From: Gammaproteobacteria bacterium
Lineage (GTDB): Bacteria > Pseudomonadota > Gammaproteobacteria > Xanthomonadales > Wenzhouxiangellaceae
Reading direction: 5' to 3'
Length of the DNA: 64,000 nt
Assembly: GCA_050485825.1 (NCBI GenBank)
Contig: JBJHCC010000010.1
Coordinates: 23,895 to 87,894, forward strand
Below the pieces are notes generated by a model, which saw nothing but the letters and a program-made list of their open reading frames with translations, had not been told where the DNA came from and made no database searches. The position numbers and the translations under genes were made by a program. Shown in pieces: positions 7,459 through 63,306 of the stretch (its first letter is position 1; each line of letters begins with the position of its first letter).

Positions 7459-7513
7459 CCGGAAGCCTGAAACCGAAAACCGTTAGTTCCTGAACCCTGA
7501 GCCCTGAAACCCA
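7459..7513 (+). repeat. Degenerate heptamer tandem array (CCnnAAn)
   Basis: ccggaag cctgaaa ccgaaaa ... ccctgag ccctgaaa between the marR stop and the gmd start. Confidence 0.75.
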
Positions 7514-7521
7514 ATATCCCC

Positions 7522-8634
7522 GTGCCCAAATCCGCCCTAATCACCGGCATCACCGGCCAGGACGGCGCCTATCTCGCAGAATTCCTGCTGGAGAAGGGCT
7601 ATGTCGTCCACGGCATCAAACGCCGCGCGTCCTCCTTCAATACCGACCGCATCGACCACCTCTACCAGGACCCGCACGAGACCGACCGCCGCCTGATCCT
7701 GCACTATGGCGACCTGACCGACGCGACCAACCTGATTCGCATCCTTCAGCAGGTCCAGCCCGACGAGATCTACAACCTCGGTGCCCAGAGCCACGTCCAG
7801 GTCTCGTTCGAAACGCCGGAATACACCGCCAACAGCGACGCCGTCGGCACCCTGCGGCTGCTTGAAGCTATCCGCATTCTGGGCCTGGAGGGAAAGTCCC
7901 GCTTCTACCAGGCCAGTACCTCGGAGCTCTACGGCAAGGTGCAGGAAACCCCGCAGCGCGAAACGACGCCGTTCTACCCGCGCTCGCCCTATGGCGTGGC
8001 CAAGCTCTACGCCTACTGGATCACCGTCAACTACCGCGAGGCCTACGGCCTGCATGCCTGCAACGGCATCCTGTTCAATCACGAATCCCCGCTGCGCGGC
8101 GAAACCTTCGTCACCCGCAAGATCACCCGCGCCCTGGCAAGGATTCATCTGGGTCTGCAGAACTGCCTCTACCTCGGCAACCTTGACGCCCGCCGCGACT
8201 GGGGCCACGCCCGCGACTATGTTGAAGCCCAGTGGCTAATGCTGCAGCAGGAAAGCCCCGAAGATTTCGTCATCGCCACGGGTGTCCAGCACGCCGTGCG
8301 AGACTTCGTCAACCACGCCGCTGCCGAACTGAACGTGGACATCGACTGGAAGGGTGAGGGCAGGGAAGAAGTCGGCATCGTCGCCCGCGCCCCGCAAGGC
8401 TCGGCCATGAAGCCGGGCCAGACCGTCGTCGCCGTCGACCCCAAATACTTCCGCCCGGCCGAAGTAGAAACCCTCCTCGGCGACCCGACCAAAGCGCGCG
8501 AAAAACTCGGCTGGACCCCAAAAACCAGCTTCGAAAGCCTGGTCCGCGAAATGATGTCCGCCGACCTCGACCACGCCAAACGCGACGCCCTGGTCACCAA
8601 GGCCGGCTACCGCGCCCCGAATCATCATGAATAA
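7522..8634 (+). CDS. gmd: GDP-mannose 4,6-dehydratase
   Basis: [52 protein letters not shown]. Confidence 0.98.
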
Positions 8635-8729
8635 ACAAAGAGTTCCGGGTTCAGGTTTCGGGTTTCGGGTTTCGGGTGCAGAATTTGGCTTTAGAAACAG
8701 TAGAGTGCGTGTTTCTGGGGGCTGCTTAG
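8627..8729 (+). pseudogene. Possible vestigial 5' remnant of an earlier fcl allele, interrupted by heptamers
   Basis: ATG overlapping the gmd stop gives MNKQRV (E. coli Fcl starts MSKQRV). After the heptamer array, 8676-8729 reads VQNLALETVECVFLGAA*, compared with [18 protein letters not shown] in the intact fcl. Short match. Confidence 0.45.
8645..8677 (-). repeat. Heptamer tandem array, reverse orientation (GGTTTCG)n
   Basis: ccgggtt caggttt cgggttt cgggttt cgggt. Confidence 0.85.
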
Positions 8730-8757
8730 ATTGCACCAGAGCTTGAGAAGCGCACAT

Positions 8758-8777
8758 TGACACCGCATGTAGTGTCA
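8758..8777. promoter_or_regulatory. Inverted repeat, likely HicB operator
   Basis: TGACAC-N8-GTGTCA just upstream of the hicA start, overlapping a TTGACA at 8757. Confidence 0.55.
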
Positions 8778-8785
8778 CAGCTATA

Positions 8786-9082
8786 ATGACTGTCTCGGAA
8801 ATTATCGAGAAGCTGCAAAGCGCAGGCGCATCTATGCGCTGCGATGAAGTGAAGAGTCTGCTGGAGGAAATCGGGTTCGAAGTTCGCGATGGCAAAAAAG
8901 CTGGCCACAAATTGGTCCGGCACTCAGAGCTGTCTGCGGCGTCCGACTTTACGTCCACTTCATATACCTGTGGCCACGGAAAAAATCCTGAAGTCAAACG
9001 GGTCTACCTGGCGAAGTTGAGAAAGATCGTCGGCAAATACGAAGTTGAGCTACGAAAGATCAACGGAGAAGAGAATGACTGA
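8786..9082 (+). CDS. hicA: HicA-family toxin (mRNA interferase)
   Basis: LLEEIGFEVRDGKKAGHK (G-x-H-like catalytic motif), 98 aa, directly upstream of HicB. Confidence 0.8.
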   Translation: MTVSEIIEKLQSAGASMRCDEVKSLLEEIGFEVRDGKKAGHKLVRHSELSAASDFTSTSYTCGHGKNPEVKRVYLAKLRKIVGKYEVELRKINGEEND

Positions 9083-9560
9083 AGCGCAGGACTACAACAT
9101 CACACTGCGGCAAGTAACGGTCGATGGCGAGCGGCTGTTCGAAGCACGAGTTCACGAATTTCCGGATGCAACGGAGTATGCCGAAACCCCCGAGGAAGCC
9201 TATGAGCTCGCGCTCGAGACAGTTGCAGACAGCTTGGAAGTGCTCGCGGGGCTGGGCCGGCCAGCCCCTCAAGTGCATGTGCCGGCCGAAGAATTCAGCG
9301 GTCGAGTGACCCTTCGTCTTCCGAAAAACCTGCATGCCCGGCTTTCATCCACTGCCGACAATGAAGGGGTCAGCCTCAATCATTATCTCGTCACGCTGTT
9401 GGCTCACACTTGCGGAACCCGCTTCGACCCGGCCCGGCCCCAGGCTGAGCAGTGGAAGCGCCCTTCGGACCCGCCTCGAGAGGTCCGTTATGGGCAAACC
9501 CATTTGAAGGTCATTTCTTGCAACCAAGGCACTGACAACGGCTACCGCCGCGCCGGATGA
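9075..9560 (+). CDS. hicB: HicB-family antitoxin with C-terminal extension
   Basis: HEFPDATEYAETPEEAYELA, then RHH domain FSGRVTLRLPKNLHARL...GVSLNHY, then about 50 extra residues. Start at ATG 9075 overlapping the hicA end. Confidence 0.88.
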   Translation: MTEAQDYNITLRQVTVDGERLFEARVHEFPDATEYAETPEEAYELALETVADSLEVLAGLGRPAPQVHVPAEEFSGRVTLRLPKNLHARLSSTADNEGVSLNHYLVTLLAHTCGTRFDPARPQAEQWKRPSDPPREVRYGQTHLKVISCNQGTDNGYRRAG

Positions 9561-10084
9561 ATCAGACTCCACTGCAGCGCGCAATCGCCTGTCTCCGGAT
9601 CGCCGATATCTGGCAACACAGCGTAACGGCGTCGATCAGCGAGGAGCTCGAGGCACAAGAACGTTTCCCGGAAAACCCGGATACGCTCTACAAGCACATC
9701 GTGGTTCGTTCGTTGTGGGGCGGTACCGAAGGTGATTCCGGGCCATTTGTTTTCCGCGTCTACATTGCAGTCGGCGTTCGCTTTGTGGACAAGTCTGGAG
9801 ATTCAGTCGGCGAAGATTCGGCGGCTGATCACGACAAGCCTGGCGCGGACGGAAGTGTACTGGCCCAGATCGAGGCGACATACGTTGCCCAGTACCATTC
9901 TGACACCGATCCCGGCCAGGATGCCTTGGAGGCGTTCGCCCTCCAGAATGCCAGCTATCACGTCTGGCCCTACTGGCGAGAATTCCTGGCATCCCAATGC
10001 GCCCGCATGAACCTGCCAAGACTCAGCCTTCCACTGCAAAGCCTGGCAGGCAACCACGGCGCATCAAGAACAGAAGCTTCCTGA
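9557..10084 (+). CDS. SecB-like chaperone (third gene of a TAC module)
   Basis: C-terminal NASYHVWPYWREFLASQCARMNLPRLSLP matches the SecB pattern (PYxRE...R...P.L.L); ATGA-coupled to hicB. Confidence 0.75.
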   Translation: MNQTPLQRAIACLRIADIWQHSVTASISEELEAQERFPENPDTLYKHIVVRSLWGGTEGDSGPFVFRVYIAVGVRFVDKSGDSVGEDSAADHDKPGADGSVLAQIEATYVAQYHSDTDPGQDALEAFALQNASYHVWPYWREFLASQCARMNLPRLSLPLQSLAGNHGASRTEAS

Positions 10085-10101: not shown

Positions 10102-10626
<525 letters not shown>

Positions 10627-11568
10627 GTGGAACTCGCCAAAGCCAAGATCTATGTTGCTGGCCACACCGGCCTTGTCGGAGCCGCCATAACCCGCCGTCT
10701 GCAAACCGAAGGCGCGGAAAAACTAATCCAGCGGACCAGCAAGGACCTGGACCTCCGCAACCAAGCCCAGGTCGAGACCTTCTTCGCGGCCGAAAAGCCC
10801 GAAATCGTCTTCCTCGCCGCCGCCAAAGTCGGCGGCATCCACGCCAACAACACCTATCCCGCCGAGTTTATCCACGACAATCTGGCCATCCAGACCAACG
10901 TCATCCACTCGGCCTGGAAAAACGGCGTGAAAAAACTCTGTTTCCTCGGCTCCTCCTGCATCTACCCCAAACATGCACCCCAGCCGATGAAAGAAGAACA
11001 CCTGCTCACCGGCTCGCTGGAACCCACCAACGAGTGGTACGCCATCGCCAAAATCGCCGGCATCAAAATGTGCCAGGCCTACCGCCGCCAGTACGGATTC
11101 GACGCCATCAGCCTGATGCCGACCAACCTGTACGGCCCCGGCGACAGCTTCCACCCGGAAAACAGCCACGTGCTGCCCGCCCTGATTCGCCGTTTCCACG
11201 AGGCAAAAGAGCAGGGCGCCGACAAGGTCACCATCTGGGGTACTGGTACGCCGAGGCGTGAATTCCTCCATGTCAACGACCTGGCTGAAGCCGCAGTGCA
11301 CATGGTCCAGCACTACAGCGACGAAGCAATCGTCAACATCGGCGCCAGTGAAGACATCACCATCCTCGAACTCGCCCACCTCATCGCCGAAATCATCGGC
11401 TATCAGGGCAAAATCGAAACCGACCCAAGCAAACCCGACGGCACCCCAAGAAAACTCCTGGACGTCACTCGGGCAAAAGAGTTGGGCTGGCAAGCCAAAG
11501 TCGACCTGCGAACCGGAATCGAACAAACCCACAACTGGTACAAAACCAGCCAATGGATCAGGATCTGA
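10627..11568 (+). CDS. fcl: GDP-L-fucose synthase
   Basis: [55 protein letters not shown]. Confidence 0.97.
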
Positions 11569-11570
11569 TC

Positions 11571-11703
11571 CCGTAAACCTGAACCCTGAACCCTGAACCC
11601 TGAACCCTGAACCCTGAACCCTGAACCCTGAACCCTGAACCCTGAAACCTGAAACCTGAAACCTGAAACCTGAAACCTGAAACCTGAAACCTGAAACCTG
11701 AAA
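11571..11703 (+). repeat. 19-unit heptamer array: CCGTAAA + (CCTGAAC)9 + (CCTGAAA)9
   Basis: Counted directly; ends 1 bp before the next ATG. Confidence 0.97.
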
Positions 11704-11704
11704 A

Positions 11705-12003
11705 ATGCGCCTAACCCCCACCCAAATCGACCTCATCAAGCAATCCGCCGAACAAACCTTCGGCCCTGAGGCTTCGGTCTGGCTGTTCGGCTCGCGGGTC
11801 GACGACACCCGGCGCGGCGGGGATATCGACCTCTACCTCGAACTCCCGCCCATGGATCCCGAGGCGCAGCGCAAACTGGAGACACGATTCTGGGTTCGCT
11901 TGCAACGCGTGCTGGGGGAGCGAAAAATCGACATCGTCAGCCACAGGCATGGCGCACCCCTTCGTCCCATAGACGAACAAGCGCGTAGCAGCGGCATCAG
12001 GCT

Positions 12004-12007
<4 letters not shown>
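11705..12007 (+). CDS. Minimal nucleotidyltransferase (MNT) antitoxin
   Basis: WLFGSRVDDTRRGGDIDL (GS...DxD) motif, 100 aa. Confidence 0.9.
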
Positions 12008-12595
<588 letters not shown>

Positions 12596-38014: not shown

Positions 38015-38029
38015 GGCGGGGTGATGGGA

Positions 38030-38090
38030 GGTTTCCGGGTTCGGGGTTCAGGGTTCAGGAAAAGACGGTTTCCGGGTTCCGGTTTCCGGG
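38030..38090 (-). repeat. Heptamer array, reverse orientation
   Basis: ggtttcc gggttcg gggttca gggttca ... ggtttcc gggttcc ggtttcc. Confidence 0.85.
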
Positions 38091-42357: not shown

Positions 42358-42876
42358 GTAGGTCGGCCCCACGCGGCCGACGGACCATGTTTGCCGAAGC
42401 CCCAGCATCGTTCGTCGGGGACGTGGCCCCGACCTGCGGGTGCCGGTCGATGCCTCGGAGAAAGGGTTGGGCGCGGATGCCGTCGGTCGGCCCCACGCGG
42501 CCGACGGACCATGTTTGCCGAAGCCCCAGCATCGCCCGTCGGGGACGTGGCCCCGACCTACGGGTGCCGGTCGATGTCTCGGAGAAAGGGTGGGGCGCGG
42601 ATGCCGTAGGTCGGCCCCACGCGGCCGACGGACCATGTTTGCCGAAGCCCCTACATCGTCCGTCGGGGACGTGGCCCCGACCTACGGGTGCCGGTCGATG
42701 CTTCGGAGCAATGATTGGCCTCGGATGCCGTAGGTCGGCCCCACGCGGCCGACGGACCATGTTTGCCGAAGCCCCGCATCCCCCGTCGGGGACGTGGCCC
42801 CGACCTACGGGTGCCGGTCGATGCCCCGGAGAAAGGGTTGGCCCGGATGCCGTAGGTCGGCCCCGCGCGGCCGACG
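42358..42876. repeat. REP array 2: four pairs plus one single, about 124-bp period
   Basis: Units start at 42358, 42482, 42606, 42730 and 42852. Confidence 0.93.
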
Positions 42877-42957
42877 GACCATGCTCGCCGAATCCCCACA
42901 TCCCTAATCTCGCCGCCTCGCCAACCCGAATCTGCCAAAAAACGACCCTCTAAAGTT

Positions 42958-43006
42958 CCGTAACCCGTAACCCGTAACCCGTAACCCGTAAGCCGTAAGC
43001 CAAAAA
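42958..43006 (+). repeat. Heptamer array (CCGTAAC)4 (CCGTAAG)2 CCAAAAA
   Basis: Counted directly; ends 8 bp before the ATG at 43015. Confidence 0.95.
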
Positions 43007-60668: not shown

Positions 60669-60995
60669 GTATGTCGGCCCTACGCGGCTGACGGACCATG
60701 TGTGCCGCAACCCGATATCGTCCGTCGGGGACGTGGCCCCGACCTACTCGGTGCCAGTCGATGCCGCAGAGAATTCATTGGGCGCGGTTTACGTAGGTCG
60801 GCCCCACGTGGCCGACGGACCGTGTATGCCGAAGCCCGATATCGTCCGTCGGGGACGTGGCCCCGACCAACTCGGTGCCGGTCGATACCTCGGAGCATTC
60901 ATTGGGCGCGGTTTGCGTAGGTCGGCCCCACGCGGCCGACGGACCAGGATTGCCGAAGCCCCACATCTTCCGTCGGGGACGTGGCCCCGACCGAC
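60669..60995. repeat. REP array 3: three pairs, 124-bp period
   Basis: Units at 60669 (degenerate), 60793 and 60917. Confidence 0.9.
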
Positions 60996-61085
60996 TCGGT
61001 GTCGGTCGATGAATCGGAGATCTGGTTGGGCCGGGTTTGGGTGGGATCCCGGCCTGCCACGTCGCCCGTATTCGGGTGATCTGAT

Positions 61086-62954: not shown

Positions 62955-63227
62955 GTAGGTCGGCCCCACGCGGCCGACGGACCATGTGTGCCGCAACCCG
63001 ATATCGTCCGTCGGGGACGTGGCCCCGACCTACTCGGTGCCGGTCGATACCTCGGAGAATTCATTGGGTGCGGTTTGCGTAGGTCGGTCCCACGCGGCCG
63101 ACGGACCATGCCTGCCGAAGCCCCGCATCGTCCGTCGGGGACGTGGCCCCGACCTACTCGGTGCCGGTCGATGCCGCAGAGAATTCATTGGGCTCGATTG
63201 GCGTAGGTCGGCCCCACGCGGCCGACG
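62955..63227. repeat. REP array 4: two pairs plus one single
   Basis: Units at 62955, 63079 and 63203, between convergent genes. Confidence 0.9.
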
Positions 63228-63306
63228 GACCATGCCTGCCGAAGTCCCCAAGGTCAAAGGTCTGCGCCCGGACAGGCTACCGGTCTCGGTCTGCCGGGGG
63301 CAGATC

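Follow-up and report, generated by a model that had tools for sequence, protein, structure and literature searches.

Introduction

SecB-like chaperones linked to HigBA, MqsRA, and HicAB toxin-antitoxin (TA) pairs were catalogued by Sala et al., who found HicAB to be one of three main families and a ribbon-helix-helix domain in all of the linked HicB antitoxins (PMC3581621). The catalogue of HicAB-type toxin-antitoxin-chaperone (TAC) systems dates from 2012-13, and chaperone dependence in Methylomonas was reported in 2016: the HicAB-type system of Methylomonas methanica MC09 (Mmet-TAC) needs its chaperone, residues 119-159 of its HicB form a transferable addiction tail that carries chaperone specificity with it (Bordes et al. 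2016, PMC5105189), and the Mmet chaperone cross-controls an MqsRA-type TAC of Vibrio (PMC5105189). In the TAC of Mycobacterium tuberculosis (Mtb-TAC), the tail of HigA1 is anchored on the chaperone Rv1957 by W108, R110, and Y114 (PMC6377645; PDB 5mtw), and the Escherichia coli systems HigBAC and CmdTAC defend against phage with the chaperone as sensor, that of HigBAC sensing lambda gpV (10.1101/2024.02.24.581848). A 2024 survey of 14 HicA gene contexts makes no mention of chaperones (PMC10865869), likely because the HicA subfamily concerned falls mostly below the Pfam threshold. Here, we describe a three-gene module in a 64-kb stretch of a gammaproteobacterial genome of the family Wenzhouxiangellaceae (GenBank assembly GCA_050485825.1, contig JBJHCC010000010.1, positions 23,895 to 87,894; referred to below as the window) that is very probably a chromosomal HicAB-type TAC system. 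An initial annotation of the window had called such systems less studied, which is fair in that a single member has been studied, although the class itself had already been described (PMC3581621, PMC5105189).

Gene organization and selection

Calling of open reading frames (ORFs) across the 64-kb window recovered three overlapping genes within positions 8786-10084, all on the forward strand and all with intact frames (Table 1). The hicA and hicB genes overlap by 8 nucleotides (nt), with a GGAG motif 6 nt upstream of the hicB ATG, and hicB overlaps the gene of the SecB-like TA chaperone (SecB-TA) by 4 nt in an ATGA junction, which bears out the earlier claim that the three genes are translationally coupled. 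The toxin-antitoxin-chaperone order and tight co-directional linkage that characterize TAC systems are both present, and the order is repeated in 28 related loci. It is also that of Mmet-TAC (Metme_2813, hicA; Metme_2812, hicB; then SecB-TA), for which a hicA-hicB amplicon of 773 nt and an addiction tail ending at residue 159 imply a HicA of ~97 amino acids (aa) and a HicB of ~159 aa, compared with 98 and 161 aa in the window.

All invariant residues of the three family alignments are present in the window proteins. Ratios of nonsynonymous to synonymous substitution (dN/dS) against three metagenomic relatives, at dS values of 0.4-1.7, are 0.10 for hicA (all 98 codons), 0.09-0.10 for hicB, 0.09-0.12 for the region encoding the HicB tail, and 0.13-0.15 for the chaperone gene; as read from these ratios, purifying selection acts on each of the three genes and on the tail. 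A database gene caller placed the hicA start at M17, giving a protein of 82 aa, but the first 16 codons are nonetheless under purifying selection. A 19-nt inverted repeat (9440-9458 and 10028-10046; 89% complementary) has one arm in the DNA encoding the surroundings of W127 in the HicB tail and the other at the 3' end of the chaperone gene, and could reflect either chance or long-range pairing in the mRNA.

Table 1. Features of the HicAB-type module and its surroundings (positions in the window)
Feature	Position	Strand	Description
gmd	7522-8634		GDP-mannose 4,6-dehydratase; flanking gene on the left
Left heptamer array	8642-8677	.	GTTTCGG x5.3 (TRF); immediately follows the gmd stop; marks the left end of the ~2-kb insertion
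Putative hicA promoter	8743-8787	+	TTGAGA (8743-8748), 17 nt, CATGTA (8766-8771) in the palindrome spacer; read from sequence
Operator-like palindrome	8758-8777	.	TGACAC-N8-GTGTCA; arms 8758-8763 and 8772-8777; proposed site for the HicB ribbon-helix-helix
hicA	8786-9082	+	98 aa; divergent HicA-type toxin, presumed RNase
hicB	9075-9560	+	161 aa from the ATG at 9075; N-terminal toxin-binding domain, ribbon-helix-helix at ~residues 76-114, C-terminal tail
Proposed chaperone-addiction (ChAD) tail of HicB	9417-9557	+	Residues 115-161; W127-K-R129, L144-K-V-I147, Y157
SecB-like TA chaperone gene	9557-10084	+	175 aa; SecB-TA
Four-helix-bundle gene	10105-10626	+	"23S rRNA intervening sequence" family (PF05635, E 2e-34); frame runs through the right array to the fcl start
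Right heptamer array	10512-10621	.	CCGGAAA units, 39-nt super-repeat (TRF, repeat search); ends 5 nt short of the fcl GTG; marks the right end of the insertion
fcl	10627-11568		GDP-fucose synthase; GTG start; flanking gene on the right

A specialized SecB-like chaperone

In direct scans, the chaperone matched no model in Pfam or NCBIfam, including PF02556, a family that 12 of 35 homologues match weakly. A phmmer search of PDB returned a sole match, Rv1957 (5mtw_C; E 7e-4), and a profile of the 35 homologues recovered the same entry at E 3.8e-7. The AlphaFold2 (AF2) model (mean predicted local distance difference test [pLDDT] score, 84) has SecB topology, and in Foldseek it matched Rv1957 best (5mtw; E 1.9e-8), followed by SecB (1ozb, 1fx3, and 1qyn; ~1e-6); all of the significant matches, the top 17, were to Rv1957 or SecB, at E values of 1.9e-8 to 1.2e-5. 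Model and matches together recover in the third gene the SecB fold on which the initial annotation had made its proposal depend. Because a canonical housekeeping SecB is encoded on another contig of the genome (147 bits to PF02556), the window chaperone is an extra, specialized paralogue, in keeping with the SecB-fold third genes of TAC systems; some sources label its homologues "preprotein translocase subunit SecB."

Rv1957, the best match in both sequence and fold, belongs to a system (HigB1-HigA1-Rv1957) that differs in its toxin and antitoxin, a HigB/HigA pair with a helix-turn-helix (HTH) domain. The two chaperones are ~20% identical when structurally aligned, and the tails of their antitoxins lack alignable sequence; the Mtb-TAC anchors are aromatic and basic residues, however, and W127, R129, and Y157 of the window HicB are alike in this respect. 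A second TAC is present in the same genome on contig C65 (L005:1456-2702, reverse strand), where a Gp49/HigB-like toxin (PF05973) and an HTH antitoxin with a C-terminal extension accompany a SecB-like protein that matches PF02556 with 30 bits.

HicB and its C-terminal tail

The antitoxin is a member of the HicB family by its match to PF05534 (E 1.3e-9; 38.3 bits, above the cut-off of 21), a family matched by nearly all of its 87 homologues. A profile of the family returned only weak HicB matches among PDB sequences (E ~1), and the end of the ribbon-helix-helix was therefore set from the alignment. An extension beyond this domain had been noted in the initial annotation; it is present, with its length corrected from about 50 aa to 47 aa, and the HLKVIS strand picked out within it (residues 143-148, nt 9501-9518) corresponds to the L-[KR]-V-[IV] segment that relatives conserve at the core of their tails. 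The tail of chaperone-linked HicB proteins follows a common pattern, in which a tryptophan with basic residues is followed after 13-20 residues by L-[KR]-V-[IV] and, ~10 residues further, by a tryptophan or tyrosine near the end. The motif is missing from the short tails of four close HicB relatives, which have 50-56% identity in the core, and in none of the four does a SecB-like gene follow; the window HicB thus bears a C-terminal extension that two-component homologues lack, as expected of a TAC antitoxin. Together with the Pfam match of HicB and the SecB fold of the third protein, this co-occurrence of tail and chaperone supports the earlier proposal of a HicAB-type TAC whose antitoxin carries a tail of the chaperone-addiction type.

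Mmet-HicB has the same layout: its dependence on the chaperone resides in a tail of ~40 residues (119-159) beyond the ribbon-helix-helix, and the window HicB may be similarly dependent. Translation of the published primers indicates that Mmet-HicB ends in ...QYA and that its fusion point lies at ...GYAQG, both of which closely resemble the HicB of Methylobacter tundripaludum (P0205), a member of our HicB alignment encoded in a hicA-hicB-secB-like locus. The window HicB differs in being only ~35% identical to this Methylococcales protein.

MqsA antitoxins that occur with this chaperone family also carry the pattern W...L-[KR]-V-[IV]...[WY], despite their unrelated DNA-binding domain; in the alignments, it lies within the C-terminal 50-65 residues of both antitoxin families. 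The 2016 study described the tails of these antitoxins as lacking significant similarity (PMC5105189). The shared motif offers a sequence basis for the published cross-talk between the chaperones of HicB and MqsA. MqsRA-type systems (Vcho-TAC of Vibrio cholerae RC385 and loci on Acinetobacter and Vibrio plasmids) have chaperones of the same family as that in the window, and this commonality of tail and chaperone fits the cross-control reported between Mmet and Vcho. They differ in their toxin and DNA-binding domain, which are unrelated, and in lacking the operator described below.

A divergent HicA-type toxin

The window HicA belongs to a tight family of proteins of 95-98 residues that are always encoded 5' of such hicB genes, and 17 of 22 family members match the Pfam HicA_toxin family (PF07927) at E<=0.1, the best with an E value of 4e-6. 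A profile of the family weakly resembles the HicA-like structure 1whz over the G-H motif (GGH in 1whz; E 0.2), and the AF2 model of the window protein (pLDDT 91) superposes on Streptococcus pneumoniae HicA (5yrz_B) with a target-normalized TM score of 0.71. Invariant residues include G40, H41, H46, C62, and H64, with G40-H41 constant across the 22 sequences. The histidine of the G-x-H strand motif is described as catalytic in studied HicA toxins; the motif is present in the window HicA, with H41 the probable counterpart of that histidine. Cysteine and histidine residues that are invariant or nearly so in this subfamily (C19, H46, C62, and H64) include those of a T-C-G-H-G motif that is not known from canonical short HicA toxins; the set could form a metal site.

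A conserved operator-like palindrome

The operator-like palindrome reported upstream in the initial annotation, TGACAC-N8-GTGTCA, is exact and is unique in the window even when one mismatch is allowed, against 0.06 occurrences expected from shuffled sequence. It is found in all 27 of the HicAB-chaperone loci for which upstream DNA is available (20 exact, 7 with one mismatch), at a nearly fixed distance from the hicB start (-311 to -343 nt, except for one locus at -490; -317 in the window), while the 52 other loci, which have a different, MqsA-type antitoxin and comprise 298 kb in all, contain a single one-mismatch match. Its presence in three of the four chaperone-less HicAB relatives indicates that the palindrome travels with the HicA/HicB lineage and not with the chaperone, as expected for a HicB operator.

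Most loci have a palindrome spacer of TATATATG or similar, and the hicA ATG follows 1-3 nt past the right arm without a Shine-Dalgarno motif, which suggests that the -10 element lies inside the operator and that hicA mRNA is leaderless or nearly so. No Shine-Dalgarno motif was seen before hicA in the window either. A consensus promoter scan with 16-18 nt spacing gave nothing above thresholds; the putative promoter in Table 1 is proposed from comparison with relatives, and its geometry (-35, 17 nt, -10) is repeated in two of the closest (L095 and L092), which have better -10 hexamers (TATATG and TATGTG). Across the window and its closest relatives, the -35-like hexamer at this spacing reads TTGAGA or TTGACA. 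The window can also be read as TTGACA (8757-8762), 19 nt, and a TATAAT (8782-8787) that overlaps the hicA ATG. In one locus (L099:1892-2441), a hicB gene has the conserved palindrome ~110 nt upstream and no detectable hicA, amid several PhdYeFM/PIN pairs; this gene may encode an orphan antitoxin.

Related loci and chaperone phylogeny

A scan with one genome per species yielded 192 relatives of the chaperone, and we examined the best 80 of these 192 loci. hicA and hicB lie directly 5' of the chaperone gene in 28 of the 80, and in 41 others an MqsA antitoxin takes their place, all 41 matching PF15731. The conservation of synteny in 28 loci, the conserved operator, and the co-occurrence of tail motif and chaperone argue for a functional link between HicAB and the chaperone. 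A maximum-likelihood tree of the chaperones placed 28 of 29 HicAB-linked members, that of the window included, on the same side of a 99/99-supported split. The exception, a Methylococcales chaperone (L039), adjoins a nearly identical MqsA-linked one (L043), as though a single chaperone had exchanged one toxin-antitoxin pair for another. The sampled Methylococcales system differs from that of the window in that its chaperone groups with MqsA-linked ones, outside the window's HicAB clade; the tree does not include Mmet-TAC itself.

Relatives of the chaperone are also found on small mobilizable plasmids. In Escherichia phage PhiR70_1 (L097, 760-2282), a lambdoid phage, cI and kil flank a three-gene block that ends in a chaperone relative, at the position where lambda carries rexAB.

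Genomic setting

The module was initially placed in a sugar locus, and its flanks are indeed the GDP-fucose genes gmd and fcl; that the locus would build phage receptors, as was also proposed, may be so. Within the gmd-fcl gap of 1,992 nt, the TAC and, after it, a four-helix-bundle gene are bounded by two heptamer arrays of opposite orientation, which form an inverted pair (8644-8662 and 10513-10531; 84% complementary). The distance from the gmd stop to the fcl start is 2 nt in two congeners, and in a third (L088) a heptamer array alone lies between the genes; by this comparison, the ~2-kb stretch in the window is an insertion. A search of 18 genomes from the same genus recovered no member of the chaperone family. 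The insertion itself contains neither a recombinase nor a mobility gene, and no terminator-like site was detected from the module to fcl. We also considered whether the cassette carries a copy of the fcl start, with a remnant left on its upstream side, and rejected this, as no direct repeat joins 8635-8790 to the fcl start and only the inverted heptamer arrays match.

The closest relatives are on three metagenomic contigs with 77-82% nucleotide identity, in which the TAC lies downstream of gmd, upstream of fcl, or both (both flanks are seen in L092 and L093); heptamer arrays are present in L092 and L095, and the four-helix-bundle gene in none of the three. Retention of the TAC at gmd-fcl in these relatives without the PF05635 gene indicates that the TAC is stable there in this sub-lineage and that the fourth gene was a later, separate arrival. 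This gene begins 20 nt past the chaperone stop, and we rejected it as a part of the module given its absence from the 80 related chaperone loci and from the closest gmd-TAC-fcl relatives.

Across the genome, arrays of this kind number ~10 sites on eight contigs, and a reversed control pattern gives none. Within the window, arrays of 7-nt units (CCNGAAA-like, in either orientation) lie at 7489-7508, 8642-8677, 10512-10621, 11575-11703, 12510-12595, 38029-38090, and 42958-42998, positions that fall at intergenic junctions of the glycan locus and on either side of inserted cassettes. At 11705-12510, a pair of overlapping ORFs (100 and 168 aa) is enclosed by two long arrays, and the first ORF has a nucleotidyltransferase-like GS...D-x-D motif; from these features, the two resemble an MNT/HEPN-like, TA-like pair. 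A separate class of tandem repeats, with a 124-nt unit, forms arrays at 42358-42902, 60669-61020, and 62955-63250 that match one common consensus at 87-91%.

Discussion

In this study, we characterized a hicA-hicB-chaperone module that agrees with the described TAC class in every feature that can be tested from sequence; it is a further example of a class already known. By analogy with studied members, HicA would be a small RNase toxin that the N-terminal domain of HicB binds and neutralizes, and the ribbon-helix-helix of HicB would repress the operon at TGACAC-N8-GTGTCA, a site that brackets the likely -10 element just 5' of a near-leaderless hicA. With its 47-residue tail, HicB would be unstable or aggregation-prone unless held by the SecB-like chaperone made from the coupled third gene, for which W127/R129, L144-I147, and Y157 are the likely anchors. 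If the chaperone were titrated or disabled, whether by a flood of unfolded clients or, as in HigBAC, by a phage structural protein, the tail would be freed, HicB would be degraded, and HicA would then cleave RNA and stop growth.

Several observations weigh against this interpretation. The window HicA scores below the Pfam cut-off for PF07927 (E 0.015; 15.8 bits, with the cut-off at 27), and the Foldseek E value of its model against 5yrz_B is poor (0.66), so that the identity of the toxin is drawn from several weak lines of evidence combined. The -10 candidate CATGTA is the weakest when compared with those of the closest relatives, which makes expression uncertain, and the branch leading to the window chaperone in the tree is long (1.66).

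Assuming that the module is a HicAB-type TAC, its biological role can be read in more than one way. The account to which we give the most weight, although still somewhat less than even, is that of a selfish addiction cassette, one of several TA pairs caught at heptamer arrays in a variable surface-polysaccharide locus, where it would at most stabilize the locus against deletion. It draws on the insertion of 1,992 nt at a junction where congeners have 2 nt or an array alone, on the failure to find the chaperone family in the same-genus genomes, and on the MNT/HEPN-like pair boxed between further arrays nearby; the metagenomic relatives that hold the TAC at gmd-fcl further suggest stable inheritance at this site. 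The insertion carries no recombinase or mobility gene, however, and addiction and defence are compatible functions, with purifying selection on the three genes suiting either. We rate a selfish or stabilizing cassette slightly above defence as the role of the module.

Selection for abortive-infection phage defence, with the chaperone sensing a phage structural protein that it would bind in place of the HicB tail, is a tentative possibility that we keep in view, most of the remaining probability going to a selfish or stabilizing cassette in a variable surface-glycan locus. HigBAC and CmdTAC, which like the window system pair a toxin and a ChAD-tailed antitoxin with a SecB-like chaperone, give a precedent with the chaperone as sensor (10.1101/2024.02.24.581848; see also PMC11618068 and PMC9519451), but their toxins differ (HigB and the ADP-ribosyltransferase CmdT), and defence and the sensing of phage proteins are known for those two only; no HicAB-type TAC was among the systems tried against phage in that preprint or in the literature searched. 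The plasmid and lambdoid-phage locations of some chaperone relatives, described above, would suit defence, as would strong defence-gene matches among the 94 ORFs flanking the 28 related HicAB-TAC loci: type III methyltransferase (3), AbiLi (3), Old (2), DrmB (2), JetD, and a Cas protein. These are raw counts with no genome baseline, from loci of which several are close kin, and amount to a hint only; many of the flanks are housekeeping genes (tRNA synthetase, RNase PH, and YchF). PADLOC gave no significant match, with none for HicA or HicB and, for the chaperone, nothing beyond a match at E 0.061 to PD-T4-9_C, its model of the CmdTAC chaperone; the module is not recognized by PADLOC. Nor do its own surroundings favor defence: the neighbors are sugar-pathway genes and other TA pairs instead of defence genes, and no link of the module to phage was seen in its own genome.

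A bolder version of the defence account, in which the chaperone is a phage sensor in a HicA-armed counterpart of HigBAC, the heptamer arrays are recombinase-free capture sites for defence and TA cassettes in a surface-glycan operon, and fcl is coupled to the module, seems improbable to us. The coupling in it follows from the lack of a terminator-like site before fcl, through which loss of HicB repression could raise fcl transcription and tie toxin release to the synthesis of surface fucose.

That the module is a decaying, non-functional TAC remnant is very unlikely: the poorer -10 candidate in the palindrome spacer, the long chaperone branch, and the gene-caller start at M17 would fit such a history, but all three frames are intact, every invariant family residue is kept, and dN/dS is 0.09-0.15, with the HicB tail and codons 1-16 of hicA also covered. 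Least likely of all is an ordinary HicAB pair that merely adjoins a functionally unlinked export SecB paralogue, as the SecB fold and the translocase label of some homologues might suggest, since the canonical SecB lies elsewhere and the window protein has no Pfam match, its gene overlaps hicB at ATGA, its family follows HicB or MqsA antitoxins with a common tail motif (28 plus 41 of the best 80 of 192 loci), the four tail-less HicB relatives have no chaperone gene, and its best PDB match is the TA chaperone Rv1957 and not an export SecB.

As a HicAB-type TAC, the module is an ordinary instance of its class and would not surprise a specialist. The HicAB branch of these systems has a single studied member, however, and the family as a whole has two features that can be tested directly: a strictly conserved operator whose arms enclose the likely -10 element, beside a hicA that has at most a very short leader, and a tail motif common to HicB and MqsA. 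The HicAB-TAC family also offers a natural test of whether chaperone-based phage sensing reaches beyond HigBAC and CmdTAC.

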